Source: Nannocystis sp. SCPEA4 | GTDB lineage: Bacteria > Myxococcota_A > Polyangia > Nannocystales > Nannocystaceae | Assembly: GCF_026626685.1 (NCBI RefSeq) | Contig: NZ_JAPNJX010000021.1 | Span: 1-41,328, forward strand | Length of the DNA stretch: 41,328 nucleotides | Direction of reading: 5' to 3' | In this document: piece by piece, positions 4,777-41,328 of the stretch | How positions within the stretch are numbered: position 1 is the first letter of the stretch | Layout of the letters: the number at the start of each line of letters is the position of its first letter | Translations under genes and position numbers: made by a program | The notes under the pieces: model-generated | The model's input: only the letters and a program-made list of their open reading frames with translations | The model's database searches: none | Told to the model about the DNA's origin: nothing

Positions 4777-4796
4777 CACAGCCGCGACCGACGCGT

Positions 4797-4856
4797 CCCA
4801 TGTCTTTTTGAACATGCTCGAAAGGGCATGTCCAAAACAACATGACCTTCGAGCTC
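4797..4856. repeat. 4 x 14-bp phased CATG-core tandem array (CCATGTCTTTTTGA / ACATGCTCGAAAGG / GCATGTCCAAAACA / ACATGACCTTCGAG)
   Basis: CATG at 4799, 4813, 4827 and 4841, so exact 14-bp spacing. Low GC. It forms the bogus N-terminus of ORF 4808..7012. Confidence 0.6.
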
Positions 4857-15089: not shown

Positions 15090-15977
15090 GTGCTCGCAGG
15101 CGTGCGCCCGGTCGCCGTCGTCGGCGCCGGCTTCCTCGGCGCCCCGGTCGCGGCCGCCCTCGCGGCGACCGCCGATTCATCTGTCCTTACGACCACGCGC
15201 TCGGGGACATGGCCGAACGGACATGTCCCAGAGGGCATCGAGGTGCGCGCCCTCGACGTCGTCGCCGCGAGCGCCGGTGAGATCGCCGCCGTCCTCGCCG
15301 GCGCCAGCGCGCTCGTGGTCTGCTACGCCCCCGGCAAGCAGCAGGACCGCCGCGACCTCTACATCGAGGGCACCCGCCGCCTGCTCGCCGCCGCGGCCGC
15401 GCTCCCGCTGACCCGCCTCGTCTACACCTCTTCCACGTCGGCGCTGCCGGACCGCGACGCCTGGCTCGACGACGACTGCCCCGACTGGCCCGACGAGCCG
15501 CGCGGCCGCGTGCAGCGCGAGGCCGAGGAGCTCGTGCGCGAGGCCTGCGTCCGCCACGACCTCCCGTGGACGATCCTCCGCCTCGCCGGCCTCTACGGCC
15601 CCGGCCGCGAGCTGTTCCGCCTCTACCGCGGCGCCCCCGACGACGGCGTCCTGCCCGGCGACGGCATGCAGCCGACCAACCTCGTCCACCGCGACGACGC
15701 CGTCCAGGCCGTCCTCGCCGCCCTCGCCCTGCCTCCGGATCGGCGCGGGGTCGTCAACGTCGTCGACGACGACCACACCCCGCGGCGCGAGATCTTCGCC
15801 CGCCTCGCCGAACTCGCCGGCCGGCCGCCGCCGCGGTGGGAGCGACCGGCCACAGCGGCCGCGATCGGCAAGCGGGTCGCCAACGCGCGCCTCAAGGAGC
15901 TTCTGCGCGTGAAGCTCCTGCATCCCTCTCACACCCCGGAGAGCCCCCGATCTTGCACGCCTCCGCCGGGTGGTTAA
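15090..15977 (+). CDS. NAD(P)-binding Rossmann-fold protein, epimerase/dehydratase-like
   Basis: GTG start. VAVVGAGFLGAPVAAALAA dinucleotide-binding motif. Start ambiguous (GTG 15090 or 15102). Confidence 0.55.
   Translation: MLAGVRPVAVVGAGFLGAPVAAALAATADSSVLTTTRSGTWPNGHVPEGIEVRALDVVAASAGEIAAVLAGASALVVCYAPGKQQDRRDLYIEGTRRLLAAAAALPLTRLVYTSSTSALPDRDAWLDDDCPDWPDEPRGRVQREAEELVREACVRHDLPWTILRLAGLYGPGRELFRLYRGAPDDGVLPGDGMQPTNLVHRDDAVQAVLAALALPPDRRGVVNVVDDDHTPRREIFARLAELAGRPPPRWERPATAAAIGKRVANARLKELLRVKLLHPSHTPESPRSCTPPPGG
15181..15240. repeat. repeat-family copy embedded in-frame in the CDS (ctgtcc...gggacatggccgaacggacatgtcccagagggcatcg)
   Basis: CTGT 15181, CATG 15208, CATG 15222, CATC 15236, so 14-bp phasing. 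Read in the gene frame it gives ...SGTWPNGHVPEGIEV. Confidence 0.55.
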
Positions 15978-18382: not shown

Positions 18383-18442
18383 ACCGCTCCGAGCCCCGCC
18401 GCGCCGCACGGTTCGAGCACGTCGAGCCACACGCTCGCCGGC

Positions 18443-25085: not shown

Positions 25086-25436
25086 ATGGGCCCGCTGCTC
25101 GACTACTTGCCGCTCGCGGCCGCCGTCGGGTTCGTCGGCGTGATCGGCGGTCTGGTCCGCGCCCGCGTGCGACCGCCGGCCCCCGCGCCCGACGCGAGCG
25201 AGAGTCTGGTCCAGTTGCGCCCCCGCCGACCCGTCGACGCCGGCGGGCTGCTCGCCCTCGCCGGCCTCGGCTTCGCCCTCGCCCTCGCCCTCGTCCTGTT
25301 CGCGCCGACGGCGGCGGTGTGCCTGTCCAGCACGACATGTCCTGAAGGACCTGCCCTTTGGGTCAGTGCTGCCGGCCTCGGCCTGCTCGGCCTGGCCACC
25401 GCGATCGCCTGGCCCTCGCTGACGCGCGCGCCATGA
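25086..25436 (+). CDS. small hypothetical membrane protein
   Basis: ATG immediately after the upstream stop. 3 hydrophobic helices. Contains a repeat copy at 25323-25367 read as ...STTCPEGPALW.... Confidence 0.4.
   Translation: MGPLLDYLPLAAAVGFVGVIGGLVRARVRPPAPAPDASESLVQLRPRRPVDAGGLLALAGLGFALALALVLFAPTAAVCLSSTTCPEGPALWVSAAGLGLLGLATAIAWPSLTRAP
25323..25367. repeat. repeat-family copy inside the CDS (ctgtccagcacgacatgtcctgaaggacctgccctttgggtcag)
   Basis: CTGT 25323, CATG 25337, CTGC 25351, so exact 14-bp phasing. Confidence 0.5.
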
Positions 25437-27112: not shown

Positions 27113-28045
27113 ATGGCAACCACGATCGCCCAGATCGGTGGCTTTGAACTTTGGGACATCCTGCAACTTGCGCAGACGTCGCGCATGTCGATCAAGCTGT
27201 CCGTCGAGTCGCCGCACGGCGTCGGCGCGATGTTCTTCCAGGGCGGCAACCTCGTCCACGCCGAGACCGGCGCGGCCCAGGGTGACGACGCCGTCAACAC
27301 CATCCTCGACTGGCGCGAGGGCAGCGTCTCGTCTTCGCAGTTGCCCGAGAACTGCCCGCAGACGGTGCGACACACGTCGATCGTCGCGCTGTTGATGGAC
27401 CGCGCCCGCCAGCGCGACGAGGCCTCGCGCAACGAGCCGCCGCCGCGCAGCGAGCCACCCGCGCGCAGCGAACCGGCGCCGCGCCACGATCCTCCGCAGC
27501 GCGCCGCCAACCCGCCCTCCCCTCCGCCGGTGCCCGTGATCGAGAAGCCGCAGCGCGCTCCGCCGGTCACCGTACCGCCACTTCCGCCGCTGCCGATCAC
27601 GACACCGTCCCCGGTATTCCCGGCTGCGCCCAACCTTGCATCGCGCGACAAGGAGCTGTCAGACATGGACCTCAAGGTCGTGAAGGCCATCCTCGAGGAG
27701 CTCGACGACCACCTCATGGGCGGCCTCATCAGCGTCGACATCATCAGCAAGGCCTCGGGCATGTCGCTCGCGGGGATCAACTCGGCGCCCAAGGCGTGCG
27801 CCATGTTCAACCGCCTGTCCGAGCAGCTGCACACCGCGCTGACCCGCTCCGAAGACGCCCTCGCCAAGGGCATCAACAAGTTCATCATCGAGGGCGACAA
27901 CGGCCTCCTGATCTTCGTCATCGAGCTCGACGAGCGCCACCGCTGGGCGATCCTCGTCGACGGCGTCAAGGCGCAGCTCGGCTGGGTGTTCGTCATCATC
28001 CCCGAGATCCAGCCGCGCCTGATCGCCGCGCTCAAGGGGCGCTGA
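27113..28045 (+). CDS. DUF4388 (PatA-like N-terminal) domain + Pro-rich linker + roadblock/LC7 (MglB-like) domain protein
   Basis: N-terminus IGGFELWDILQLAQTSRMSIKLSV...GAMFFQGGNLVHAETGAAQGDDAVNTILDWREGSV matches the DUF4388 pattern. The C-terminal ~120 aa alpha/beta segment (LLIFVIELDERHRWAILVDG...) resembles roadblock/LC7. RBS GGGGAGG. Confidence 0.6.
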   Translation: MATTIAQIGGFELWDILQLAQTSRMSIKLSVESPHGVGAMFFQGGNLVHAETGAAQGDDAVNTILDWREGSVSSSQLPENCPQTVRHTSIVALLMDRARQRDEASRNEPPPRSEPPARSEPAPRHDPPQRAANPPSPPPVPVIEKPQRAPPVTVPPLPPLPITTPSPVFPAAPNLASRDKELSDMDLKVVKAILEELDDHLMGGLISVDIISKASGMSLAGINSAPKACAMFNRLSEQLHTALTRSEDALAKGINKFIIEGDNGLLIFVIELDERHRWAILVDGVKAQLGWVFVIIPEIQPRLIAALKGR

Positions 28046-28101
28046 GCTGTCCTGTGGGACATGCCCTTCGAGGCATGTCCCCTGGCGCATGCACCTCGGC
28101 A
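28046..28101. repeat. 3 x 14-bp phased palindromic repeat array (ctgtcctgtgggaCATGcccttcgaggCATGtcccctggcgCATGcacctcgg)
   Basis: CATG at 28060, 28074 and 28088. GGGACATGCCC / GGGCATGTCCC inverted arms around TTCGA. Intergenic. Confidence 0.65.
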
Positions 28102-29037: not shown

Positions 29038-29847
29038 ATGGCCGACGACGATCCGATCACCGAGGGTTACTTCGATCGCCACCTGCATCGGCCGCTCGCA
29101 GCGTGGGTCCTGGGCCGGGTGCGACCGGCGCCGAGCCTCGAGCTGCTGACCCTCGCCGGGCTCGTGGTCGGCCTCACCGGCGCCGTCGCCGTGCTCCTCG
29201 CCTCGCCGCGCAGCGTCGACTGGATCTTCCCCGCGTGGCTGCTGTTCGCGTTCACCGTCGCCAGCAGCGGTCGTCGCCTCCTCGCCGGTCATTCGGGCGC
29301 CGAGCCCGAGGCCGGGATGCTGGAGTTCGCGATCGGCGCCGCCTTCTGGATCGCGCTGACGCTGCGCGCCGCGCCGGACAGCGCGTGGACGTGCACCGTC
29401 GCCTCGATCGCGCTGGTCAGTGCTCTGGTCCACGTCGGCCTCCAGGCCGAGCTGCGGCGGCGCTTCGCCGAGCTCACCGGCGGTGACGGCGACGTCGCGC
29501 CTCCCTCGCCGCGGCCCTCGGTGGCTGCGCTGGCGCGCGGGCTGGCGCCCGCCGTGTTCCACGACCTCGCGGCCGCACTGCTCGGGCCCGAACACCTCGG
29601 CGGCCGGCCCCCGCCGGGCGCCGCGCGCTCGCTCCTCGCCGCGCCGATGCGCATGGCCGCATGGCTCGGTCACGACACCCACCTCGCCCTGCTCTACGTC
29701 GCCACCGCGGTCGCCGCGGTCCGCATCGACCTGGCCTTCTGGACAGTCGCCCTCGCGGTCGCGGTCGGCCTCAATCTTTGGGCGCTGCTGGTCGTGGCCG
29801 GCTGGCGCCGCGCCGAGGCGCTGGTCCGCCGGCTCGCGCCCGTGTGA
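29038..29847 (+). CDS. hypothetical polytopic membrane protein
   Basis: 6 or more hydrophobic helices. No catalytic motif recognised. Confidence 0.5.
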   Translation: MADDDPITEGYFDRHLHRPLAAWVLGRVRPAPSLELLTLAGLVVGLTGAVAVLLASPRSVDWIFPAWLLFAFTVASSGRRLLAGHSGAEPEAGMLEFAIGAAFWIALTLRAAPDSAWTCTVASIALVSALVHVGLQAELRRRFAELTGGDGDVAPPSPRPSVAALARGLAPAVFHDLAAALLGPEHLGGRPPPGAARSLLAAPMRMAAWLGHDTHLALLYVATAVAAVRIDLAFWTVALAVAVGLNLWALLVVAGWRRAEALVRRLAPV

Positions 29848-30011
29848 AGCGCGGCCGAGGATCGGGCGAGACAACCGCAGCGCCCGACGAGCGAAGCGCC
29901 CCGGAACGCCCGGGCTCGGCCCGTGCACGCGTTGCTGCGCCTGCGGACCCCGCGACGACGAGCGCGCCCGGGCTGCGACGAGCGCAGCGCGGGCGCGGAG
30001 GGATGGCCGAT

Positions 30012-30058
30012 CGCACATGTCCCGAGGACCCTGTCCCCGGGGCCATGCGCCGGGCTCA
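30012..30058. repeat. repeat-family copy between convergent genes (gcaCATGtcccgaggaccCTGTccccggggcCATGcgccgggctc)
   Basis: CATG 30016, CTGT 30031, CATG 30044, a 14/15-bp phase. Contains a CCCCGGGG palindrome. Sits at the ACP 3' end, so it may be a bidirectional terminator. Confidence 0.55.
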
Positions 30059-30322
30059 GGACGCGGCGGCCTGCTTCTCCTGCAGCGTCTTGTGCAGCAG
30101 GTCGACCAGCTCGTTGATGTTGGTCAGCTTGTTGAGCTCGGCGCGGGGGATCTTCACCTTGAGCTCGCGCATGCTGCAGGAGACGACCTCGACGATGTCG
30201 AGACTGTTGGCGCCGAGGTCCTTCATCGACTTCGCGGGGTCGACCTGGGCCGAATCGATCCCTTCGACGGTGTCCACGAGGTGGCGCTTGACGACGGCCA
30301 AGACATCATCGCGGGTGCTCAT
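30056..30322 (-). CDS. acyl carrier protein
   Basis: DLGANSLDIVEVV with the phosphopantetheine-attachment Ser. 88 aa. Confidence 0.85.
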   Translation of the reverse strand: MSTRDDVLAVVKRHLVDTVEGIDSAQVDPAKSMKDLGANSLDIVEVVSCSMRELKVKIPRAELNKLTNINELVDLLHKTLQEKQAAAS

Positions 30323-30385
30323 TCTCGGTTCTCCTTGGTGGGCGCGGGGCAGACGGCCCGCAGCGAATCTCGCAGGAAATGAAGC

Positions 30386-31201
30386 TCAAAAACTCAGCCC
30401 GTGGCGCTCGCGCGCAGAGAACAGGCGAACGACGTTGTCGGCGAAACCGAGCCCTCTGTCCAGTAGCAGAATCTGCCCCTTGACCCCGTCCATGAGGCCG
30501 CTGCAGAGGGCCAGCGCCGCGGCCGCGACCTCGTCGGGGTCGATGAACCAGCCCTCCGAGTAGTACTTCTTGCAGAACGGCACGAAGTCGGGCCCGAAGG
30601 TCGCTTCCAGCGATGCAGTCTCGACCGGGTTCGCGCGCAGGATGTTGATGCGAACATCCTCACTGAGCAGATCTGCCGTGAGGTAGCGACAGAAGGTCTC
30701 CATCACGGTCTTGCTCGCGGCGACGAAGTCATAGCCCGGCAGGAAGTACTCGGGCCCGCGCGACGACATTCCCACGGCGTACTTCGGCCAGCGGCCGAAG
30801 GTCTCGCGCACCGCCTGCAGGTAGCCGACGAACGGCCACGCGCTGTAGCCGAGGCTGCGCAGGAACGACTTCTTGTCGAGGTCCTCGTGCGACTTGCTGA
30901 CGTGGGCGAACGACACGTTGCTGATCAGCGCGAACACGGCGTCGTGGTCGCGGCGGATCAGCTGCATCAGCGCCTCGGTGTCCTCGTCCTGCGACGCGTC
31001 GGCCTCGACGATCGTCGGCGCCGGCGCGCCCGCGGCCTCGAACTGCGCGCGCAGCTCGTCCTCGTCGGCCGAGCCCCAGCGGTGCGTGAGGTACACGTGC
31101 GCGCCGTGCTTGCCGAACAGGAGGCCCGTCGCCAGGCCGATGCCCGCCGTCCCGCCGGTGACGATGACGGCCTTGCCCTTGAGATCGTTGCGGAGGATCA
31201 C
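30386..31201 (-). CDS. FabI-like enoyl-[ACP] reductase (SDR family)
   Basis: GKAVIVTGGTAGIGL Rossmann. Y-x6-K dyad (YDFVAASK) typical of FabI-type ER. GTG start with a GGAAGGGA Shine-Dalgarno. The ORF-track N-terminal extension is Arg-rich junk. Confidence 0.7.
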   Translation of the reverse strand: MILRNDLKGKAVIVTGGTAGIGLATGLLFGKHGAHVYLTHRWGSADEDELRAQFEAAGAPAPTIVEADASQDEDTEALMQLIRRDHDAVFALISNVSFAHVSKSHEDLDKKSFLRSLGYSAWPFVGYLQAVRETFGRWPKYAVGMSSRGPEYFLPGYDFVAASKTVMETFCRYLTADLLSEDVRINILRANPVETASLEATFGPDFVPFCKKYYSEGWFIDPDEVAAAALALCSGLMDGVKGQILLLDRGLGFADNVVRLFSARERHGLSF

Positions 31202-32013
31202 GACGCCGTCCCTTCCTTGTCGGTGCCGCCGACGAGGCGGGGCCCGAGCGTGGCGATGTTGTCGACGAACGCGGCCCCGCGGTCGAGCGTCAGCACCTGC
31301 CCGCCCATCGCGTCGAACAGGCCGCTGCACAGCGCGAGCGCGGTGTCGGCGACCTCGTCGACCGTGCACGCGAACTCAGGGAACTTGCCGGCCAGCGCGC
31401 GCTGCTCGGCGGCGAACATCTGCTCGTAGCTCTCGGTCATCACCTGGCGGGTGCGCAGCGCGTTGACGATGCAGCCGTGCTCGTACAGGTGCGTGCTCAT
31501 GTAGCGCACGAACGTCTCGAGCACCGCCTTGGCCACGGCCACGTAGTCGTAGCCCGGGTAGTGGGTGTCGGGGCCGTCGGACGACATCGCCAGGGCGTAG
31601 CGCGGGTAGCGACCGAACGCGGCGTGCAGCGCCTGCAGGTAGCCGACGAACGGCCAGCTCGAGTACTCGAGGCTCTTGTACAGCGCGCGCCGGCTGTGAC
31701 TCATCGGCCCGTCGCCGCGCTGGACCACGCACACGTTGCTGATGAAGGCCCACACGCCGTCGCACTCCTCCTTGAGGCGCGCCGTCAGCTTGTCGGTGTC
31801 CTCCTCGCGCGAGGCGTCGGCCTCGATCACCAGCGGCGCCGGGGCGCCCGCGGCGATGAACCGGGCCCGCAGCGCGTCCTCGTCGGCCGAGCCCCAGCGG
31901 TGCGTCAGCACCGTGCGCGCGCCGTGGCGACCGAACGCGAGCGCGCACGCGAGGCCGATGCCCCGCGTCCCGCCCGTGATCAAGACGACCCTGTCCTTCA
32001 AGTCATGCAGCAA
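31198..32013 (-). CDS. FabI-like enoyl-[ACP] reductase paralog (SDR family)
   Basis: About 45% identical to the downstream paralog (DRVVLITGGTRGIGL; YDYVAVAK). TTG start preceded by GGAGGAAGA. The first codons are rare and contain a CCTGTCC word. Confidence 0.65.
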   Translation of the reverse strand: MLHDLKDRVVLITGGTRGIGLACALAFGRHGARTVLTHRWGSADEDALRARFIAAGAPAPLVIEADASREEDTDKLTARLKEECDGVWAFISNVCVVQRGDGPMSHSRRALYKSLEYSSWPFVGYLQALHAAFGRYPRYALAMSSDGPDTHYPGYDYVAVAKAVLETFVRYMSTHLYEHGCIVNALRTRQVMTESYEQMFAAEQRALAGKFPEFACTVDEVADTALALCSGLFDAMGGQVLTLDRGAAFVDNIATLGPRLVGGTDKEGTAS

Positions 32014-32042
32014 GCGTCTTCCTCCGTTGCCTCGTCCGTGCG

Positions 32043-32816
32043 CTACCCGGAGCCCTTGGCGTAGTTCGTGCGGATCCGCGCCACCGTCTCCGGGTCGGCG
32101 AAGCATACCTCGTGCATCATCGACTCGACCGTGCGCGCCTCCTCGAACGCGCGCCGCCGCGGCAACGCCAGCGCACGCTTGAGCAATAGCAGCGCAGCGC
32201 GCGGCTTGTCGGCGATCCGCGCCGCCATGTCGATCGCCCGCGGCAGCACCTCGGCGCGCGGCACGACCGCGTTGACCTGGCCGCGCCCGGCCAGCTGCTC
32301 GCCGCGGAAGTACTGCCCGCCGAACAGCATCTCGGCCGCGACGTACTCGCCGAACGCGAACTGCAGCAGCCGCGTCGAGCCCATCCCCGGGGTGAAGCCC
32401 AGGTCCATGAAGTTGGCGCCGTAGCGGCTCTCGCGGGCCAGCACGACCATGTCGCAGGCCAGCCCGAACACGAGGCCGCCGCCGACCGCCGGCCCGGCCA
32501 TCGCCGCGACCGTCGGCACCGGCGCCTCGAGCAGCGCCCGCGTCAGCACCAGATCGTACGGCGCGATCGTGCCCTCGGCCAGGCCGAGCAGCACGTCGCG
32601 GTCGCCGCCGGCCGAGAACACCTCGGGCAGCCCCGCGATCACGCACACGCGCACGTCGGCGCGCCGGCCGAGGTCCTCGAGCGCCTGCGTCAGCGCGGCC
32701 GCGAACGCGCGGCTGAACGCGTTCTTGCCCGCCACGTCGCGCATGGTCAGCACCGCCAGCCCCTCGCGCTCGAGCGTCACGTCGACGAGGCTGTCTGTTG
32801 GGACATGCGCGTTCAT
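32043..32816 (-). CDS. enoyl-CoA hydratase/isomerase (crotonase) family protein, ECH of the beta-branching cassette
   Basis: Crotonase fold (VCVIAGLPEVFSAGGD; GPAVGGGLVFGLACD). ATG 32816. Confidence 0.8.
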   Translation of the reverse strand: MNAHVPTDSLVDVTLEREGLAVLTMRDVAGKNAFSRAFAAALTQALEDLGRRADVRVCVIAGLPEVFSAGGDRDVLLGLAEGTIAPYDLVLTRALLEAPVPTVAAMAGPAVGGGLVFGLACDMVVLARESRYGANFMDLGFTPGMGSTRLLQFAFGEYVAAEMLFGGQYFRGEQLAGRGQVNAVVPRAEVLPRAIDMAARIADKPRAALLLLKRALALPRRRAFEEARTVESMMHEVCFADPETVARIRTNYAKGSG

Positions 32817-32835
32817 TCCTGTCCTTTCAGCCTGG
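32791..32835. repeat. repeat-family copy spanning a start codon and RBS (ctgtctgttgggacatgcgcgttcattcctgtcctttcagcctgg)
   Basis: On the minus strand it reads GAAAGGACAGGA-ATG-AACGCGCATGTCCCAACAGACAG, that is RBS + MNAHVPTD. The CCTGTCCTTTC half matches the copy at 3024-3034. Confidence 0.55.
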
Positions 32836-33568
32836 CGAACCACGGCGGCGCTTGCCCGTCGGCCAGCAGGGCGGCCAGCGCCGCCCGCAGTTCGGGGTCC
32901 TCGAGGTCGGCCGCGGTCTGGGCCACCCCGCCCTGCCCGGCCGTCGCGGTGATCCGCTTGAGCGTCGCCACCGCCTGCGGGCGGGCCCGCAGCAGCGAGC
33001 GCATGAGCCCGCGCAGGGCCGTATTCGGCTCGTCCGCGACCACGTCGACGAGCCCCCACGGCTCGGCCTGGGCGGCCGTCACGACCTCGCCGGTAAGCGC
33101 CAGCCGCCGGGTCCGCCGCGCGCCGAGGCGCGCTTCGAGGGCCGGCAGGATCACCGCCGGCACCAGCCCGTAGCGCAGCTCCGGCAGCGCGAACGTGGCC
33201 GCGGGGCCGGCGATCACCAGGTCGCAGGCAGCAGCCAGCCCGACCCCGCCGCCGCTGGCCGCGCCGATGACCACCGCGATCGTCGCCAGCGGCGCGCTCG
33301 CCAGCAGCTCGAGACAGCCGGCGTAGCGCTCCATCGCCACGCGCATCGGCCCCGACCCGGTCTTCAGCGCCGCCGCCAGGTCCATGCCGGCGCAGAACTC
33401 CGCCGCCTCGCTGGCGATCACCAGCGCGCGCGCCGACGCGGCGACCGCCTGCTCGACGGCGTCGGCCAGCGCCGCGATCCCGTCGGGGTCGAGAGCGACA
33501 TGTCCCCCGGGACCTGCCCCGAGGTACAGCCGCCAGATCAGCTCGCCCTCTTCGCAGCGGACGCGCAT
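32813..33568 (-). CDS. enoyl-CoA hydratase/isomerase (crotonase) family protein, second ECH
   Basis: Crotonase fold (FCAGMDL; GAASGGGVGLAAACD). 4-nt overlap with the downstream ECH. The N-terminus contains a repeat copy (GAGPGGHVALDPDG). Confidence 0.75.
   Translation of the reverse strand: MRVRCEEGELIWRLYLGAGPGGHVALDPDGIAALADAVEQAVAASARALVIASEAAEFCAGMDLAAALKTGSGPMRVAMERYAGCLELLASAPLATIAVVIGAASGGGVGLAAACDLVIAGPAATFALPELRYGLVPAVILPALEARLGARRTRRLALTGEVVTAAQAEPWGLVDVVADEPNTALRGLMRSLLRARPQAVATLKRITATAGQGGVAQTAADLEDPELRAALAALLADGQAPPWFARLKGQE
33491..33525. repeat. repeat-family copy inside the CDS (gagagcgacatgtcccccgggacctgccccgaggt)
   Basis: CATG 33499, CTGC 33514. GGGACATGTCCCCC palindromic core. 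Confidence 0.5.
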
Positions 33569-33604
33569 GGCTCAACTCCTGGGCCGAGGGGCGGACGGGC
33601 GCGG

Positions 33605-33630
33605 CATAACATGTCCCTCAGGACAGGCGG
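33605..33630. repeat. repeat-family copy in the 49-bp gap between HMGS and ECH (cataacatgtccctcaggacaggcgg)
   Basis: TGTCCC-TCA-GGACA inverted repeat. The GGACAGG also serves as a Shine-Dalgarno-like sequence for the ECH gene. Confidence 0.5.
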
Positions 33631-34859
33631 TACTCCCGCTGCCAGCCGCGCACCGCGTCGAGGACGAGCCGGCCCTTGCCGGCGTAGGCGCGCTCGTACA
33701 GCCCGCGCAGCCCCGACTGGTCGACCTCGTAGTCGCTCTGATCGATGTAGCCGGCCCGCAGCCGCTCGAGCGCCTCGTACTCGGCGATCGTCAGCGGCAT
33801 GCGGCGGTCGAGGCCGGCGGCGATCCGCTGGCTGGCGACCCGCTCGCGCGCGCGCTCGCCGACGGTCGTGCGGTAGAACTCGGCGCACGAGCCCGAGCCG
33901 TAGGAGAAGATCGACACCTGGTCGCCGGCGTGCAGCTCGGGGTCGGCGTCGATGAGCCCGAGCATGGCGATGAAGGTCGCCGACGTGTAGGTGCCGCCGA
34001 AGCGCGAGTTGTAGCGCAGCGCCGCCTTCGACTTGCGCTCGAAGTGGGCCTTCGCCTCGCGCAGCGACATCTCGTGCGGCCCGCGGCGCAGCAGCGCCCG
34101 GTGGGCGCGGAACGTCATGCCGCCGAACGGCACGTGGTAGATGTGGCGGGCGAACGCGGCGTCGTAGTCGACCATGCCCGAGCGAGCGACGTAGTGGTCG
34201 TACGCGCCCTCGAGCGCGTCGAGGTAGCCGTACAGGCTGGTGTCGGCGTGGCCGACCTCCTTGGTCGACGTCGGCCGGTAGGTGTCGAAGATCTCCTGCG
34301 TCCAGTAGCCGCAGGTGTCGAGGTCGATCTCGAGGACGTCCGGCTCGGCGCTGACCAGCATCGCCGTGGCCGCCGCGCCGAGCACGTACTCCCACGGCTG
34401 CCCGAGGTGCACGCGGCTCTGGTCGGTGCACACCACCAGCGCCTTCTTGCCCGGGGCCGCGCCCGACGCGACCCAGTGGGCCGCCATCATCAGGCCGCCG
34501 GTGCCGCCGTAGCAGGCGTGCTTGGTCTCGAAGTTGCGGCAGTTGGCCGTGAGCCCGCAGTAGCGCTGCACGTAGGTCGAGATCGGCTTGCCGAAGTCGA
34601 CCGACGACTCGGTGCCGACGATCACGAGCTCGATGTCCTTGCGGTCCTCGGGCCCGACGATCTGCAGCGCGGCGTTGACCGCCATCGTCACCGGGTCCTC
34701 CCACGCGGGGTTCAGCGACCGCTCGCTCACCCACAGCTCCTCGAGCGGGTGGCGCGGATCGTGGTCGCGCGCCTCTGCGAGCAGCTTCATGTCGAGCGAG
34801 AGCGTGCACGGGTAGGCCGTGATCCGCTCGATGCCGACGCGCGGCCGGTGGTGCGCCAT
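33618..34859 (-). CDS. hydroxymethylglutaryl-CoA/ACP synthase family (HMGS, PksG/TaC-like beta-branching enzyme)
   Basis: HMGS active-site region NFETKHACYGGTGGLMMAAHWV (catalytic Cys). 413 aa. Thiolase-like fold. Confidence 0.85.
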   Translation of the reverse strand: MAHHRPRVGIERITAYPCTLSLDMKLLAEARDHDPRHPLEELWVSERSLNPAWEDPVTMAVNAALQIVGPEDRKDIELVIVGTESSVDFGKPISTYVQRYCGLTANCRNFETKHACYGGTGGLMMAAHWVASGAAPGKKALVVCTDQSRVHLGQPWEYVLGAAATAMLVSAEPDVLEIDLDTCGYWTQEIFDTYRPTSTKEVGHADTSLYGYLDALEGAYDHYVARSGMVDYDAAFARHIYHVPFGGMTFRAHRALLRRGPHEMSLREAKAHFERKSKAALRYNSRFGGTYTSATFIAMLGLIDADPELHAGDQVSIFSYGSGSCAEFYRTTVGERARERVASQRIAAGLDRRMPLTIAEYEALERLRAGYIDQSDYEVDQSGLRGLYERAYAGKGRLVLDAVRGWQREYRLS

Positions 34860-34872
34860 CGTCTTCCCCCTC

Positions 34873-35616
34873 TCAGTACGTCCAGTCGAGGCCGCCCGTG
34901 ACCGGCACGACCTGACCGTTGATGAAGCTGCCGCCGTCGGCGAGGAACAGCACCACGGCGGCGAGCTCGTCGAGCGTGCCCATGCGGCCCTTGGGCATCG
35001 GGCAGTACTGCTGCCAGTAGTCCTTGGCCGCCTGCGGCATGGTCTCGCGCGTCATGTCGGTGTCGAAGAAGCCGGGCACGACGACGTTGGCGGTGATGCC
35101 CTTGCGCCCGTACTCCTTGGCGAGCGACTGGGTGAAGCCGTGCAGCCCGGCCTTGCTGGCGGCGTAGTTGGCCTGGCCGGCCGCACCGTTGTGCTGGATC
35201 GACGAGATGTTGACGATCCGGCCGAAGCGCGCCGCCAGCATCTGCGACAGGAACGCGCGCACGACGTAGAACGGCCCGTGGAGGTTGGTGGCGATCACGT
35301 CGTGCCACTCCTCGTCGGACATCGAGACCACCAGGTTGGCGCGGTTGATGCCGGCGCAGTTGACCACGACCTCGACGCTGTCGAAATCGTTCAGCACCTC
35401 GTCGGCGACCTCGGCGACCCGCTCGGCGCGGCTGACGTCGAGCGCGTAGCCCTTGCACTTCGCGCCCGGGCGCAGCGCCGCGGCCTCGGCCTCGATCTTG
35501 CGCGCGGCCTCGTCGTTGCTGCGGTAGGCGAACGCGACGTCGTGACCGGCGCGCACCGCCGCGAGCACGATCCCGGCGCCGATCCCCCGCGAACCTCCGG
35601 TGACGAAGAAGTTCAT
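34873..35616 (-). CDS. fabG: 3-oxoacyl-[ACP] reductase
   Basis: MNFFVTGGSRGIGAGIV; NISSIQHNGAAGQANYAASKAG (S-Y-K triad); 247 aa classical SDR. Confidence 0.85.
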   Translation of the reverse strand: MNFFVTGGSRGIGAGIVLAAVRAGHDVAFAYRSNDEAARKIEAEAAALRPGAKCKGYALDVSRAERVAEVADEVLNDFDSVEVVVNCAGINRANLVVSMSDEEWHDVIATNLHGPFYVVRAFLSQMLAARFGRIVNISSIQHNGAAGQANYAASKAGLHGFTQSLAKEYGRKGITANVVVPGFFDTDMTRETMPQAAKDYWQQYCPMPKGRMGTLDELAAVVLFLADGGSFINGQVVPVTGGLDWTY

Positions 35617-35624
35617 GGCGCGGC

Positions 35625-36935
35625 TCACAGGGCGTTCGGGTCCCACCGGCGGTACAGCGCGCAGCAATTGAGGCCGCCGAAGCCGAACGAGTTCTTGACC
35701 ATGAGGTTGATGCGGTGCTCGACCGCCTTGTTGGCGCACACGTCGACGTCGACCTCGGGGTCGAGCTCGTCGATGTTGATCGACGGGTGCAGCACGCCGC
35801 CGCGCATCTGCAGCAGCGCCGCGACCGTCTCGACCGCCGGCGCCGACCAGCAGGTGTGGCCGAGCATCGACTTCGGCGCGTTGATCTTGAGCCGCTTGGC
35901 GTGGTCGCCGAACACCTTGCGGATCGCGTTGAGCTCCGACAGGTCGCCGAGCGGCGTGCTGGTCGCGTGGGCGCAGATGAAGTCGATCTCCTCGGGCCGC
36001 ACCTGCGCGCGCCGCAGCAGGCGCTCGAGCGTGCGCGCCTGGCCCTCGGTCGACGGCGACGGCAGGTGACAGCCGTCCGACGTCGAGGTGCAGCCGAGCA
36101 CCTCGGCGTAGATCGTCGCGCCGCGCTTGAGCGCGTGGCCGAGCTCCTCGAGCACCAGCGCGCCCGCCCCGTGCGACGGCACGAAGCCCTCGCGGCGGGA
36201 GTCGTAGGGCCGGCTGGCCAGCTCGGGCGTGTCGTTGAAGCTTTCGAAGGTGATGGCGCCGAGCAGCGCCATCGCGTGCACGCCCATCTGCGAGAAGTCG
36301 AGCACCGCGCCGACCACCATCGCCATGTCGTGGTCGTGGTGGCGGATCTCGTCGATCGCGTTGCGCAGGGCCACGTTGGCGCTGGCGCACGCGCCACCCA
36401 GCGTGTAGCAGGAGCCCTTCCAGCCCAGCATCTCGCTCACCGATCCGGCGTGGTCGGTGTCGAGCATGTGCAGCGCCGCCATCGAGTCGATGTAGTCGGG
36501 GTCCTCGGTCTGGAAGGTGACGTAGTTGTCGGCGAAGTAGCGCTCGTTGAGGTTGTGGCCGCCGACCAGCACCGCGCAGCGCGTCGGGTCCGCGACCTCG
36601 ACCATGCCGGCGTCGCGCCAGGCGTCGGCGGCGCACAGCACCGACAGCGACGTCGAGAACGGCGCCTTGTTGCACAGGAGGCGCGCCCGCTTGTGCACCT
36701 CGGCCGGCAGCACGTCGCGCAGGCGCGCGAGCTTGGCCTTGACGTCGTACTCCGACAGATCGCCGCCGATCTTCGAGTAGACGCCCTCGTTGTTGTGCCA
36801 CTTCCAGCGCGTGATGGCGGACTTGCCGGCGACGAGGTTGGCGTAGAACGTGTCGAGATCGTCGCCGAGCGGCGTGTTGATACCGAGGCCGGTGATGACC
36901 ACGCGGCGGGGCGATTGTGCCTGCGATGAGACCAT
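35625..36935 (-). CDS. beta-ketoacyl-[ACP] synthase (FabF/FabB-like; active-site Cys retained)
   Basis: GGACASANVAL (Cys), CAHATSTPLGD (His), SMLGHTCWSAP (His). 436 aa. Confidence 0.85.
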   Translation of the reverse strand: MVSSQAQSPRRVVITGLGINTPLGDDLDTFYANLVAGKSAITRWKWHNNEGVYSKIGGDLSEYDVKAKLARLRDVLPAEVHKRARLLCNKAPFSTSLSVLCAADAWRDAGMVEVADPTRCAVLVGGHNLNERYFADNYVTFQTEDPDYIDSMAALHMLDTDHAGSVSEMLGWKGSCYTLGGACASANVALRNAIDEIRHHDHDMAMVVGAVLDFSQMGVHAMALLGAITFESFNDTPELASRPYDSRREGFVPSHGAGALVLEELGHALKRGATIYAEVLGCTSTSDGCHLPSPSTEGQARTLERLLRRAQVRPEEIDFICAHATSTPLGDLSELNAIRKVFGDHAKRLKINAPKSMLGHTCWSAPAVETVAALLQMRGGVLHPSINIDELDPEVDVDVCANKAVEHRINLMVKNSFGFGGLNCCALYRRWDPNAL

Positions 36936-36951
36936 GCGTGCTCTCTGGGGG

Positions 36952-37506
36952 TCAGTCCATCAGGTAGACCTCGAACACCGCGAGGGCCTGGACCTCCTCG
37001 CCGCGGAGGGCCTGACCGACGCAGGTCGAGACGTAGTCGCTGTGCTCGAGCGAGCGGGCGAGCAGCGTCAGCCGGTCGCCCGGGCGGACGCCGCCCTGGA
37101 ACAGGGCGTGGTGGACCTTGAGCAGCCGCAGCCGCGCCGGAGCGTCGGTCGCGTCGATGCGGGCTGTCCCTTTGGCCATGAGGTGCAAGAGACAGATCCC
37201 GAGCTGCCCGATCGCCTCGACCAGCAGCACCCCCGGGTACACCGGGTCGCCGGGGAAGTGGCCGGCGAACACCGCGTCGCCGGCGTCGATCGTGCGCGCG
37301 CCCCGGATCATCCCCGGCTCCTCGGCGCTGCGCGGCAGCTCGACCGCGTCGATCGCGTCGACGAACAGGAACGGGTCGCGGTGCGGCAGCATCCGCTCGA
37401 TGTCCGCGCGGCCGAACTCCACCCGCGTGGAGCCCTCCCCGGGCACGAACACCGGCCGGCGCCGGTGCTGCTTGATCAGCGTGTCGAGGCCGCTCAGCTC
37501 GTCCAC
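36952..37506 (-). CDS. fabZ: 3-hydroxyacyl-[ACP] dehydratase (hotdog fold)
   Basis: LPHRDPFLFVDAI...GHFPGDPVYPGVLLVEAIGQ. GTG start with an AGGAGG Shine-Dalgarno, overlapping the stop of the upstream acyltransferase. The ORF-track N-terminal extension is discarded. Confidence 0.8.
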   Translation of the reverse strand: MDELSGLDTLIKQHRRRPVFVPGEGSTRVEFGRADIERMLPHRDPFLFVDAIDAVELPRSAEEPGMIRGARTIDAGDAVFAGHFPGDPVYPGVLLVEAIGQLGICLLHLMAKGTARIDATDAPARLRLLKVHHALFQGGVRPGDRLTLLARSLEHSDYVSTCVGQALRGEEVQALAVFEVYLMD

Positions 37507-38504
37507 GACGCCTCCTGAGCCTTGTCCTTGCGCGTCGTCGGCGGCAGGTGCTGGCGCAGCGCCGCGAGCACGCCGGCGAGGTGCCCGGGGGCGTCGTCGC
37601 GGCTGTCGGTGGCGTACTTCGGGCGCGTCGACCACTTGCGGTCGAGCAGGTTGTGCAGCACCTGGCGCGGACCGACCTCGACGAACACCGCGCCCGGGTG
37701 GCGCTCGGCGACGCGGTCGATCGACTTGCGCCACAGCACCGGCGTGTGCACGTGCGCCTCGAGCAGGTCGACGAAGTCGGTGCGCGTCGGCGCCGGCACG
37801 AACTCGCCGCGGCGGTTCGGCAGGTACGGCAGCCGCGGCGCGCGGAAGCGGGCCCGCTGCAGGTGCGGCCGCAGAGCCACGCCGACCGGCTCGAACAGCG
37901 ACGAGTGCATCGGCACCTGGCGCTCGATGATCGTCGGCACCACGAAGTGCTCGTCCTCGAGCAGCGTCACCGCGGCCTCGACCGCGGCGGCGTCGCCCGA
38001 CAGCACGTGCTGCTTCGGCGAGTTGAGGTTGACGATCTCGAGCACGCCGAGGCCCTGGCCGCGGATCTGCTCGACCACCTCCTCGAGCGTCTCGAGGTCG
38101 AGCGGCTGGACCGAGGCCATCATCCCGCGCGGGCCGGCGTCGTAGGCCTCGCCGCGGGCCTGGACCAGGCGCAGCGCCTCCGGCAGCTCGAGCGCGCCGA
38201 TGTGCACGAGGTGGTTGTACTCGCCGAGCGACAGCCCCAGCGACAGCTCGGCGTCGACGCCCTCGGCCTGCAGCAGGCTGAGCATCATGTGATTGGCGAC
38301 GAACACCCCGACCTGGACGTCGACGTTGCGATCGAACGCCGTCGGGTTGTCCTCGCTGGTGTGGGCGTTGAGGTCGCGGCCGAGGACGTCGCTGCACACC
38401 GCCAGCACCTCGGCCGCGCGGCGATGCAGCCGGGCCAGCTTGCCGAGCATCCCCGGGTAGCGCGAGCTCTGCCCTGGGAACATGAACACCAGCGTCGTCA
38501 TCAT
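37494..38504 (-). CDS. ACP S-malonyltransferase-like acyltransferase (FabD family)
   Basis: FPGQSS and GLSLGEY (active-site Ser) motifs. 336 aa. Confidence 0.8.
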   Translation of the reverse strand: MMTTLVFMFPGQSSRYPGMLGKLARLHRRAAEVLAVCSDVLGRDLNAHTSEDNPTAFDRNVDVQVGVFVANHMMLSLLQAEGVDAELSLGLSLGEYNHLVHIGALELPEALRLVQARGEAYDAGPRGMMASVQPLDLETLEEVVEQIRGQGLGVLEIVNLNSPKQHVLSGDAAAVEAAVTLLEDEHFVVPTIIERQVPMHSSLFEPVGVALRPHLQRARFRAPRLPYLPNRRGEFVPAPTRTDFVDLLEAHVHTPVLWRKSIDRVAERHPGAVFVEVGPRQVLHNLLDRKWSTRPKYATDSRDDAPGHLAGVLAALRQHLPPTTRKDKAQEASWTS

Positions 38505-38526
38505 CGTGCCCCCTGCCCTGTCCCGC

Positions 38527-39786
38527 TCACTCGGCCGCCTCGTCGACGCGGCCGCGGATGATCGTGTCCTCGAGGATCTCGAGCGCGCGGTCGAGGTCGG
38601 CGCGCGTGTGCGCGGCCGTGATCGCGACGCGGAAGCGCAGGCCGTCCTCCGGCACCGAGGGGTAGTCGACCGGCGCGAGGAACAGCCCGCGGCGGTGCAA
38701 CGTGCGCGTCAACTCATACAGCCGTCGGCGATCCGATCCGACCATGATCGGCACCACCTGACTCGAACCGTGCCCGAGGTCGAGCCCGATCTGCAGCGCC
38801 TTCTCCCGGAAGTAGCGGGTGTTGGCCCACAGCGTCTCGCGCAGCGAATTGTCGCGCGTCGCCACCTCGAGCGCCTTGCGCAGGCCGGCCACCACCGCCG
38901 GCGGCAGCGCGCAGCTGAAGCCGTAGGCGTTGATGTAGTAGCGCATGTAGTGCAGCAGCGCGCGCGGCCCGACGGTGAAGCCGCCGCAGCCGGCGAACGC
39001 CTTGCTGAAGGTCGCGAACTGCAGGCCGATCGACTTCTCGGCGCCGTAGTGCTCGACCACGCCGCGGCCGTGCGCGCCGTACACGAGGATCGAGTGGGCC
39101 TCGTCGATCAGCACGCCGACGCCGTGCTTCTCGGCCACCGGCAGGAGCCGCGGCAGATCGGCCGTGTCACCGTCCATCGAGTACACGCCCTCGACGACCA
39201 CCAGGCGGCGCGCGCCCTCGCTGTCGGTCAGCGCCTGGTCGAGCGAGTCGGGATCGTTGTGGTCGAAGAACACCAGCTTGGCGCGCGACAGCTTGACGCC
39301 GTCGATCGAGCACAGGTGCGTCTTGGCGTCGAGGATGGCGACGTCGCCCTTGCGCAGCACGCCCGCCAGCGTGCCCATGCCGCCGGCGAAGCCGCTGTTG
39401 AAGAGGATGCAGTCCTCCTGTCCGAGGAACGCCGCGAGCTCGCGCTCGAGCCCGCGGTGCAGATCGGACAGTCCCGACAGCAACGGCGAACCACAAGCCC
39501 CGGTGCCGTAGGTGCGCAGGGCCTCCTGCGCCGCCTCGACGACCTCGGGGTGCGTAGCGAGCCCGAGGTAGTTGTACGAGCTGAGGTTGATGACGTCGCT
39601 GCGCTCGCCGGCCCGCTCGATCGCCATGCGCGGTGCGACGGCCCCCAACATGTGGGGTTCGTACATCGACATCGCCCACGAGCCGGCTTCGGCCCACTGC
39701 ACGAAGCCCTCGGGTGGACAGAGCGGATCGTCGCTGTCCGAGAAGTAGAAGTCGGCCAAACTGTGCTCGGCTTCGCGGCCCATCAC
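38527..39786 (-). CDS. alpha-oxoamine synthase family PLP enzyme (serine palmitoyltransferase / 8-amino-7-oxononanoate synthase / KBL-like)
   Basis: PLP-lysine motif FATFSKAFAGCGGF. SMDGD and HGxGxxE motifs. About 70-aa N-terminal extension. AGGGGAG Shine-Dalgarno before GTG/ATG 39786/39783. First gene of the operon. Confidence 0.8.
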   Translation of the reverse strand: MMGREAEHSLADFYFSDSDDPLCPPEGFVQWAEAGSWAMSMYEPHMLGAVAPRMAIERAGERSDVINLSSYNYLGLATHPEVVEAAQEALRTYGTGACGSPLLSGLSDLHRGLERELAAFLGQEDCILFNSGFAGGMGTLAGVLRKGDVAILDAKTHLCSIDGVKLSRAKLVFFDHNDPDSLDQALTDSEGARRLVVVEGVYSMDGDTADLPRLLPVAEKHGVGVLIDEAHSILVYGAHGRGVVEHYGAEKSIGLQFATFSKAFAGCGGFTVGPRALLHYMRYYINAYGFSCALPPAVVAGLRKALEVATRDNSLRETLWANTRYFREKALQIGLDLGHGSSQVVPIMVGSDRRRLYELTRTLHRRGLFLAPVDYPSVPEDGLRFRVAITAAHTRADLDRALEILEDTIIRGRVDEAAE

Positions 39787-40239: not shown

Positions 40240-41328
40240 TGAGCACGAAGGTGGTCGTCACCGGCGCGAACGGGTTCATCGGCAGTCACCTCGTCGATCG
40301 CTTGCTCGCCGAGGGCCACGCGGTGCGGGCGATGGTCCGCGCCGGGGCCAACCTCGACAACCTCGCCGACGCGTTCGCGCGGCCGTCCGGGCGGCCCGAG
40401 CTGGCCCACGCCACGCTCGCCGACGTCGACGCGATGACCACGGCGTTCGACGGCGCCGACGTCGTCTATCACGTGGCCGGACTGACCGCCGCGTTCACGC
40501 GCGAGGAGTTCGCGCGGGCCAACGCCGTCGGGGTCGCCAACGTGCTCGCGGCGATCCGCAACGCGCCTGGTCGGCCGCGGCGGCTGGTCTACGTGTCGTC
40601 GCTGATGGCCGCCGGCCCCTCGCACCCCGAGGTCGCGCGCCGCGAACACCACGCCCCGCGCGTCGGCTTCACCCTCTACGGCGACAGCAAGCTCGACGGC
40701 GAGAAGCTGGTCTTCGCGGCCGCGCGCGCCGGCGACGTCGAGGCCGTGATCGTGCGCCCGCCCGCGGTCTACGGCCCGCGCGACGCCGACATGCTGCAGA
40801 TGATCCGCTCGGCCAAATTCGGCGTGATCGCCCAGCCCGGCCTGCGCCCGGCGTGGATGTCGTTCATCCACGCGCTCGACCTCGTCGACGGCATCGCCCG
40901 CGCCGGCGCCCGTGGGCGCCCGATCCCCCGCGACGGCGACCACGTGCTCGACGATCGAGGCTGTCCCTTCGACCATGTCCCCGAGGACCCGTCGCACCCG
41001 GTCGGCGCAGGCATCTACTACTTCACCGACGGCCAGCGCAGCACCGTCGTCGGCTTCGGCCGGGCCGCCGCCGCCGCACTCGGCCGCCGCGCGCTCGCGC
41101 TGCCGATGCCGCGCGCGGCCGTGTGGACCGTCGCCGGCATCAACCACGCGATCGGCAAGCTCCGCGGCAAGGCCCCGGCGCTCACCCTCGACAAGGCCCG
41201 CGGCAGCATGGCGCCGGGCTGGTGGTGCGACGACAGCAAGGCGGTCCGCGAGCTCGACTACGCCCCGCAGTGGCCGCTCGCGCGGGGGCTCGAGCACACC
41301 GTCGCGTGGGCGCGCGCTGCAGGCCGCC
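40240..41328 (+). CDS. NAD-dependent epimerase/dehydratase family reductase (partial, 3' end off the window)
   Basis: GTG start. VVVTGANGFIGSHLV Rossmann. YGDSK catalytic dyad. Not in the ORF track (no stop in the window). The minus-strand ORF 40194..41297 is its antisense artefact. Confidence 0.7.
40961..40992. repeat. repeat-family copy embedded in-frame in the epimerase CDS (ctgtcccttcgaccatgtccccgaggacccgt)
   Basis: Encodes CPFDHVPEDP within an apparent ~25-aa insertion between the conserved ...GIARAGARG and GAGIYYFTDG segments. Confidence 0.6.

Follow-up and report, generated by a model that had tools for sequence, protein, structure and literature searches.

An overlapping crotonase gene pair in Nannocystis sp. 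SCPEA4: a predicted coupling junction, probably carried by an old degenerate copy of a REP-like repeat

What is the role of a repeat-like sequence which lies exactly where one gene ends and the next one begins? The question is raised by a stretch of 41,328 nucleotides from Nannocystis sp. SCPEA4 (contig NZ_JAPNJX010000021.1, positions 1 to 41,328, hereafter the window), which has a G+C content of about 70%. On its minus strand two crotonase-fold genes, ECH1 (32813..33568, 251 aa) and ECH2 (32043..32816, 257 aa), follow each other inside an operon spanning 39786 to 30056, delimited by a gene map based on the G+C content of third codon positions (GC3) and by Pfam domains. A sequence-only reading of this DNA had proposed that a copy of a palindromic repeat overlaps the translation start of ECH2, provides its ribosome-binding site and its first codons, and may modulate translational coupling or mRNA structure. 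The answer that we favour is plainer: the segment would be the coupling junction of ECH1 and ECH2, carried by an ancient, degenerate and coding-embedded copy of a REP-like repeat of the Nannocystaceae, a reading that we regard as probable, if only modestly so.

The arrangement of the junction can be read directly from the sequence and from the ends of the open reading frames (ORFs). ECH1 and ECH2 are co-directional and share four bases, ATGA, at 32813..32816 of the minus strand, the ATG start codon of ECH2 occupying 32816-32814 and the TGA stop codon of ECH1 occupying 32815-32813. The coding strand from 32828 to 32791 reads GAAAGGACAGGA ATG AAC GCG CAT GTC CCA ACA GAC AG, as had been described. 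An (A/G)TGA overlap is found in all of the 25 distinct orthologous junctions, including those of clades with a different N-terminus, and in all source gene calls of the orthologues the end of ECH1 lies 4 nt beyond the start of ECH2. More than 14 homologues, with identities as low as about 68%, keep the N-terminus MN(A/G/E)(H/Q)V(P)xD(S/I)L, and the variation between orthologues sits at third codon positions of the ECH2 frame starting at 32816. Given this conserved N-terminus (MNxHVPxDSL) and an overlap shared by all 25 junctions, the start of ECH2 at 32816 is secure, and a start located elsewhere, which would have turned the element into a simple untranslated leader, finds no place in these data.

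Upstream of this start codon, a Shine-Dalgarno-like (SD) sequence GAAAGGA lies at a distance of 5 nt (32822..32828, minus strand), within the final codons of ECH1, and is presumably complementary to the 3' tail of the 16S rRNA (UCCUUUC). An SD-like purine run precedes the start of ECH2 in all orthologues, which retain GGAGGA, GAGGA or GAGGGA at this position. The word GGACAGG, found at 32824-32818 of the minus strand, had been taken for the ribosome-binding site: a purine-rich stretch upstream of the start is indeed the SD, but its exact sequence is GAAAGGA, which shares with GGACAGG no more than the first three bases of the latter. The other two assignments hold as proposed, since the element forms the last codons of ECH1 (AAA GGA CAG GAA TGA) and the CATGTCCC core at 32807-32800 supplies codons 4-6 of ECH2 (CAT GTC CCA, H-V-P).

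These features suggest a simple scenario, in which ordinary coupling by termination and reinitiation is the most likely mechanism. A ribosome ending ECH1 at the UGA would be positioned on the overlapping AUG, and the SD GAAAGGA 5 nt upstream would aid its reinitiation on ECH2, or a fresh 30S subunit might bind the open site. The ECH2 SD and start are predicted to be among the least paired positions of the operon. For coupling itself, the conserved ATGA overlap is a sufficient explanation. The DNA which bears these signals would be an ancient degenerate copy of three repeat units, fixed in the tail of ECH1 and the head of ECH2 before Nannocystis diverged, the present copy having no meaningful hairpin in this genome. 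The junction sequence would then be retained because it is coding, because it serves as SD and start, and because it carries a constrained word centred on CATG.

To which repeat would this copy belong? The window has an excess of both words singled out by the sequence-only reading, with 10 copies of CATGTCCC for 1.04 expected and 16 of GGACAGG for 6.6 expected, counts reached in none of 100 shuffles in either case. Two copies in the window are perfect palindromes of the form GGGACATG-N10-CATGTCCC. This palindrome was scanned in one genome per species for 185,579 species and was found at no fewer than 120 loci; among the matches listed, 78 came from seven or eight Nannocystis species or from Nannocystaceae metagenome-assembled genomes, and those from outside the Nannocystaceae were mostly scattered singles, together with a few loci of the Caulobacter group having a common loop sequence. 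The 82 Nannocystis copies are arrays of a self-palindromic unit GGRCATGYCC(C), 10-12 bp long and repeated with a 14-nt period. Of the copies, 65-77% have complementary bases at the inner and 49-63% at the outer stem positions that flank the fixed arms, and because this complementarity is kept while the sequence varies, adjacent units form hairpins of 10-14 bp with tetraloops.

The genomic position of the copies defines the family further. Although 84% of the DNA is coding, 69 of the 82 copies (84%) are extragenic: convergent gaps hold 44 and co-directional ones 18, divergent ones none. They typically begin 5-60 nt past a stop codon, most often at 10 nt; nine family hairpins in Nannocystis loci L004-L122 begin exactly 10 nt past a stop, a number in which orthologous sites may be counted repeatedly. 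Being mostly extragenic, placed almost always behind stop codons and never between divergent genes, the family is REP/BIME-like. Its word is found about once per 4 kb at ≤1 mismatch. In Nannocystaceae loci from outside the genus Nannocystis it has 12 matches at ≤1 mismatch against 1.8 expected, and locus L128 has a variant copy upstream of an adenosyltransferase gene, at a position orthologous to the copy at 28048-28089 of the window; from this excess and this variant it follows that the family is older than the genus. No Rfam family matched when the window was scanned in full, and full-text searching of the literature on Nannocystis or myxobacterial REP-like repeats returned no description. 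In about 1 Mb of fetched loci, a sample too small to be sufficient, neither motif regular expressions nor tblastn with E. coli RayT matched a cognate RAYT (Y1 transposase).

At the junction, three segments of the minus strand resemble this unit. Unit 1, GGACAGGAAT (32815..32824), matches GGRCATGYCC at 6 of 10 positions and codes for the end of ECH1 (G-Q-E-stop); unit 2, GCGCATGTCC (32801..32810), matches at 9 of 10 and covers ECH2 codons 3-6 (A-H-V-P); unit 3, AGACAGCCTC (32787..32796), lies 14 nt past unit 2, matches at 6 of 10 and covers codons 7-10 (T-D-S-L). Their cores, CAGG, CATG and CAGC, are thus placed in exact 14-nt steps. We used a covariance model of the family hairpin, called R1, for scanning the window and the orthologous loci, the latter gathered via ECH2 homologues, since the exact ECH2 protein of the window had no entry among the assemblies. 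The whole junction segment, 32792..32833, lies in the register of R1 and scores 10.6 bits (E 0.46 in the window). Its tri-unit score of 21 is the weakest of the 19 positions which score ≥21 at the 14-nt spacing, all in loci with family copies, against 0-6 such positions at other periods; simulated sequences contain 0.5-1 positions with a score ≥21 per window. The junction copy also differs from the typical family position behind stop codons in being wholly within coding sequence. The description of this segment as a repeat copy thus stands on its three units in 14-nt register and on the orthologues, its score in the window being at noise level.

It is the comparison of orthologues, and not the window score, which reveals the resemblance to the repeat as real. 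In the same register, -17 to +25, the orthologous junctions match R1 with 28.1 bits in L154 (E 2.5e-6), 24.5 bits in L140 (E 3.2e-5), 24.1 bits in L145 (E 4.3e-5), 20.1 bits in L212 (E 1e-3) and 18.9 bits in L124 (E 2e-3), and in each of these five loci the junction is the top R1 match. Unit 1 reads GGACATG in L140, L145 and L154, and unit 3 reads GGACATCCTC in L145 and L154. The junction of L145, GGACATG AATGAAC GGACATGTCC CATC GGACATCC, contains three units in 14-nt steps; its tri-unit score is 25, the highest among the orthologues, versus 21 in the window. The arm positions deviating from GGGACATG-N10-CATGTCCC differ between lineages.

A second line of evidence came from the codons of 13 distinct ECH2 orthologues. 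His4 is encoded by CAT in 9 of 9 orthologues, whereas the other histidine codons of these genes are CAC 27 times and CAT once; Gly3 is GGA in 5 of 5, against 13 of 362 in the background, and Val5 is GTC in 13 of 13, against 146 of 289. Among 222 majority-residue columns, His4 is the sole one with a consensus codon ending in A or T. The window adds CCA and ACA, each of about 3% usage, and conservation has a local peak at -4 to +25. Two other explanations were considered. A general preference of early codons for A or T at the third position explains CAT poorly, the GC3 of codons 2-15 being 0.88-1.00 versus 0.94 overall, and avoidance of the pair CAC-GTC is ruled out by the 157 CAC-GTC pairs of Nannocystis ORFs (the corresponding count of CAT-GTC is inflated by ORFs miscalled over repeat arrays). 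The same triplet of codons, GGA CAT GTC, is found at two places of the window outside ECH2: at ECH1 codons 22-24 (33496-33505, G-H-V), where it is kept in L001, L123, L126 and L131 and reads GGT CAG GTC in L128 and GGC CGC GTC in L124, and at codons 41-43 of an epimerase gene (15219-15228), where GGA CAT GTC CC persists at 60% protein identity (L214). Together, these codon comparisons indicate that something besides the protein sequence constrains the CATG-centred word. The cause of this constraint, and the descent of the junction from a repeat rather than convergence towards one, are what we infer from the comparisons as a whole.

Several other explanations have to be weighed against a coupling junction of repeat origin. 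One of them, suggested by the sequence-only reading, supposes a working RNA device, where unit 1, which contains the 3' half of the SD, would pair with unit 2, or unit 2 with unit 3, masking or exposing the initiation site of ECH2, so that ECH2 would be translated only once a ribosome finishing ECH1 has melted the hairpin (a structure-dependent coupling). GGACA and UGUCC arms do flank the start codon and form a helix in the 60-nt minimum free energy (MFE) fold; over 13 orthologues, pairing is kept in 83% of cells for the inner helix and in 90% for the unit 2/3 helix; L154 has its GUG start enclosed in a hairpin of 13 bp (-28.5 kcal/mol, z -2.55); and the T of CAT and the C of GTC, both fixed, are the exact pairing partners of the A and G of GGACA. 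Against such a device, the GGACA/UGUCC helix has only 5 bp and -4.3 kcal/mol, versus -19.9 kcal/mol for the copy at 28056-28081, and within a context of 161 nt it has a pair probability of about 0. In folding, the 60-nt region has no advantage over its shuffles (z-score +0.66), like most orthologous junctions (z +0.7 to +1.15) and unlike the true copies (z -2.6 to -3.9). The MFE folds of orthologues differ, L154 alone being strongly structured, and L130 and L151 keep CATGTC though their left arm is unable to pair. No compensatory change was found in the two candidate helices across the 13 orthologues, where pairing was no higher than in column shuffles. In this genome there is hence no sign of the junction acting as an RNA switch and no support for the proposed effect of the repeat on mRNA structure, and we consider the device improbable. 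A site for a host factor, which would be the 10-bp palindrome GGACATGTCC recognized by a DNA- or RNA-binding protein, a nuclease, a methylase or an uptake-like system and selected wherever it is present, appears a little less improbable. The junction copy would be one of several coding sites, either overlapping the start incidentally or allowing the factor to control ECH2. It would account for the rare codons GGA CAT GTC being kept across genera at ECH2 codons 3-5, ECH1 codons 22-24 and epimerase codons 41-43, for which codon-pair avoidance offers no explanation given the common CAC-GTC, and the early codons of window genes have almost no general shift to A or T at third positions (GC3 0.88-0.95 against 0.94); the excess of the word in Nannocystis and related lineages and an epimerase palindrome finished by codon choice on an old peptide are also in its favour. 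However, no candidate factor is known and literature searching returned nothing relevant, intergenic copies show covariation but no sequence conservation at their inner stem positions, a pattern which argues for hairpins rather than for a sequence-specific site, the junction unit of the window departs from the word (GCGCATGTCC, GGACAGG), and the independent lineages are few. On balance this explanation is unlikely.

Pure coincidence, i.e., ordinary coding sequence and an SD which happen to resemble the repeat, is the least probable of the three, after the recognition word and the hairpin device in that order, and is already disfavoured. The window in isolation would allow it: 10.6 bits correspond to an E of about 0.5, chance would yield about one CATGTCCC per window and a tri-unit score of 21 some 0.5-1 times, GGA-CAG-G can arise from Gly-Gln and the SD, and GTC-CC from Val-Pro. 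It is contradicted by the orthologous junctions, whose R1 matches in this register have E-values from 2.5e-6 to 2e-3, by the spacing of exactly 14 nt, which is the family period, and by the clustering here of the rare codons CAT, GGA, CCA and ACA. The coupling junction carried by an old repeat copy, which we prefer, has its own weak points. Alone, the junction of the window is indistinguishable from chance by its R1 and tri-unit scores, and the five significant orthologous matches span about three clades with shared ancestry and are thus not independent events. Repeat origin is inseparable from convergence on a selected word, for which the epimerase copy at 15196-15237, a palindrome realized via codon choice, offers a parallel, and the fixed T at +12 is left unexplained. 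Coupling at this junction is predicted from sequence, and because ECH2 clades without the motif have the ATGA overlap too, coupling does not need the element. A bolder version joins several of these ideas: GGACATGTCC might be a functional word of the Nannocystaceae, read by a DNA- or RNA-binding factor, maintained by purifying selection, even where it is synonymous, at three coding positions unrelated to each other, and spread behind genes in arrays of hairpins, with the factor or alternative pairings of the units setting the ECH2:ECH1 translation ratio. We give this version little credence; if true, it would turn a REP-like element into a conserved translational control site inside an operon.

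The other copies in the window place the junction in context. R1 finds three clear copies (28048-28089, 15196-15237 and 4801-4842) and marginal ones at 33501-33528, 29992-30031 and 33580-33625. The full reference copy, 28048..28089 (44.7 bits, E 1e-11), forms the hairpin GGGACATGCCC-TTCG-AGGCATGTCCC, 10 nt past the stop of the gene 27185-28045; it folds with -26.7 kcal/mol (z -3.3) and has orthologous copies in L001 and L023. The copy at 15196..15237 (44 bits, fold z -3.9) lies inside the epimerase coding sequence 15102-15977, where it encodes GTWPNGHVP, and is a perfect family palindrome with the rare codons ACA, GGA, CAT and CCA. An in-frame insertion of the repeat was rejected for this copy, since the peptide TWPxG(H/P)VPEGI is present in homologues down to 50% identity, and the palindrome was completed through codon choice on an ancient peptide; its left arm GGG ACA TGG was found only in Nannocystis among the orthologues examined. 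At 4796..4850, in a locally AT-rich stretch 20 nt past the stop of 3070-4776, there is a four-unit array, CCATGTC / GAACATGCTC / GGGCATGTCC / AACATGACC (28 bits and E 2e-6 for 4801-4842). Two side observations concern further copies: three units with a 14-nt period at 25319-25370, kept in L001 at 18432-18460, are located in a doubtful ORF of 116 aa (25086-25436) which may be a miscalled repeat region, and TGTCCC-N8-CATGTCCC-CGA-GGACCC at 40957-40994, kept in L001 around 1778, is located in a second epimerase coding sequence, where it encodes HVPED.

Inside the operon, a degenerate copy occupies the gap between the HMG-CoA synthase (HMGS) gene and ECH1 (33580..33625, 11.8 bits, E 0.2), where the mRNA strand reads CCTGTCC TGA GGGACATG-N10-CCCGTCCG. 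This gap measures 49 nt here and 108 nt in Nannocystis sp. ILAH1 and N. pusilla, which keep the unit, and 4-31 nt without any unit in distant orthologues; because these have a short, repeat-free gap, the copy is a younger insertion. A second case of GGACAGG serving as SD had been proposed at 33605-33630, which does not hold: GGACAGG is there on the plus strand (33621-33627), opposite to the coding strand of the operon, whose mRNA has CCUGUCC UGA GGGACAUG, with CTG TCC as the final two codons of HMGS (L-S), and the SD of ECH1 itself is AGGAG, at -12 to -8 relative to the ATG at 33568. CCTGTCC was also considered as a third half-site in this gap and set aside, being accounted for by the L-S codons and variable in other orthologues. 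GGACAGG was rightly located in the early codons of the FabI paralogue (31990-31996, codons 7-8, coding strand AAG GAC AGG), where it is plain coding sequence. At the other end of the operon, degenerate copies (29992..30045, 13.7 bits), kept in L001 and L123, lie in the convergent gap behind the acyl carrier protein (ACP) gene; a strong hairpin, CCCCGGGGACAGGGUCCUCGGG (fold -31.9 kcal/mol), followed by no T-run, makes this region a plausible end of the operon transcript. Scans of 29800-34000 for sigma-70 promoters and intrinsic terminators found none. We also observed, 3' of the ACP gene, an unrelated second hairpin repeat, CCTGGCCTTCGGGCCAGGTGCGGACTTCGGGCGG, with UUCG loops, present in three copies in ILAH1 (L001 12900-13080) and N. 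pusilla (L123 6860-7010).

The genes of the operon, which is of a lipid/polyketide type, suggest what would be coupled. Their order is a class I/II aminotransferase (alpha-oxoamine-synthase-like), an acyltransferase, a FabA-like dehydratase, a ketosynthase, a ketoreductase, HMGS (33618-34859, minus strand, from Pfam and the gene map), ECH1 (Pfam ECH_1, E 3e-31, and synteny), ECH2 (Pfam ECH_1, E 7e-47), two FabI-like reductases and ACP. An HMGS gene followed by two crotonase-fold genes, with ketosynthase and ACP in the same operon, is the gene set of an HMGS beta-branching cassette as judged by Pfam and synteny. ECH2 is 91% identical to a protein of Nannocystis sp. ILAH1 and its homologues carry the JGI name PksI; we thus assign ECH1 as the putative dehydratase-type and ECH2 as the putative PksI-type crotonase of such a cassette. 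Separately from the junction, the entire operon 30056-39786 is syntenic across Nannocystaceae (the window, L001, L212 and L213), with sugar-nucleotide enzymes on its flanks. The tandem FabI-like paralogues (30386-32013, 271 aa each) share 72-78% nucleotide identity at an 818-nt offset, and this duplication is kept in all orthologous operons. The operon of N. pusilla (L123, 4001-8459) may be decaying: its ECH2 is truncated, with 232 aa, its second FabI-like gene has been split into two pieces, its ACP is shorter than usual, and directly downstream of it there is a DDE transposase gene. Finally, at 10658-10936 three tandem 93-nt repeats with a mutual identity of 67-72% code for a Cys-rich module, CG.G....GE.CDDGN, which we take to resemble myxobacterial Cys-rich repeat proteins.

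If the junction is a coupling junction on an old repeat copy, it is a routine one, whose value is mainly for annotation: the start of ECH2 is fixed and the crotonases of beta-branching would be made in a coupled manner. Two by-products go beyond this. One is the Nannocystaceae REP-like family, a description of which was not found in our full-text searching of the literature, with its self-palindromic units arrayed behind genes at a 14-nt period. The other is the presence in coding regions of copies of the core word, with synonymous sites conserved across genera, which is unusual for extragenic and fast-evolving elements. The junction itself constitutes a testable case of a repeat-derived or repeat-mimicking sequence providing N-terminal codons together with their SD and start codon.

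Among known systems, the closest are the ATGA gene pairs, which are coupled via termination-reinitiation (PMC6728339, PMC10666635, PMC12548453). As in these pairs, the genes of the junction are co-directional, overlap by 4 nt, have the SD of the downstream gene inside the upstream ORF, would code for successive enzymes of one pathway and keep the overlap in all orthologues; the junction is unlike the usual pairs only in its kinship to a dispersed repeat, coupling being here predicted from the arrangement of the genes. The family, for its part, resembles the REP, BIME and REPIN elements of Gammaproteobacteria (PMC3116915, PMC3337134; bioRxiv 10.1101/2021.07.10.451892) by its short imperfect palindromes in many lineage-specific copies, mostly extragenic, behind genes or in convergent gaps, with inverted doublets as hairpins and vertical inheritance at orthologous positions. 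It differs from REP in that each unit is itself a CATG-centred palindrome of 10-12 bp, in arrays whose period is strictly 14 nt, that a GTAG-type head is not evident in the family, and that several copies are coding-embedded and conserved. In E. coli, as reportedly found by Liang, Rudd and Deutscher in 2015, a REP hairpin no more than about 15 nt away from a stop codon makes terminating ribosomes stall and reduces the expression of the upstream gene. Family hairpins are likewise often placed about 10 nt past stops, and unit 2 of the junction begins 3 nt past the stop of ECH1; by analogy, such stalling may occur at true copies like 28048-28089 and is unlikely at the junction because it has no stable hairpin in this genome.

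Palindromic repeats can also be translated within proteins. The Rickettsia palindromic elements (RPEs) are in-frame insertions of 100-150 bp. The present family shares with RPEs (e.g., PMC1166351) the translation of a palindromic repeat within proteins. Unlike them, its coding copies measure 10-42 nt, and at least that of the epimerase is an old peptide matching the repeat by its codons, not an insertion. Another parallel is offered by the DNA uptake sequences (DUS) of Neisseria and the uptake signal sequences (USS) of Pasteurellaceae, asymmetric words of about 1 per kb tied to competence, which are genus- or family-specific 10-12-mers often forming inverted pairs as terminator-like hairpins behind genes. 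The Nannocystaceae word is, like them, a 10-12-mer found in inverted pairs behind genes and also conserved inside coding regions; unlike them, it is palindromic and rarer, with about one occurrence per 4 kb at ≤1 mismatch.

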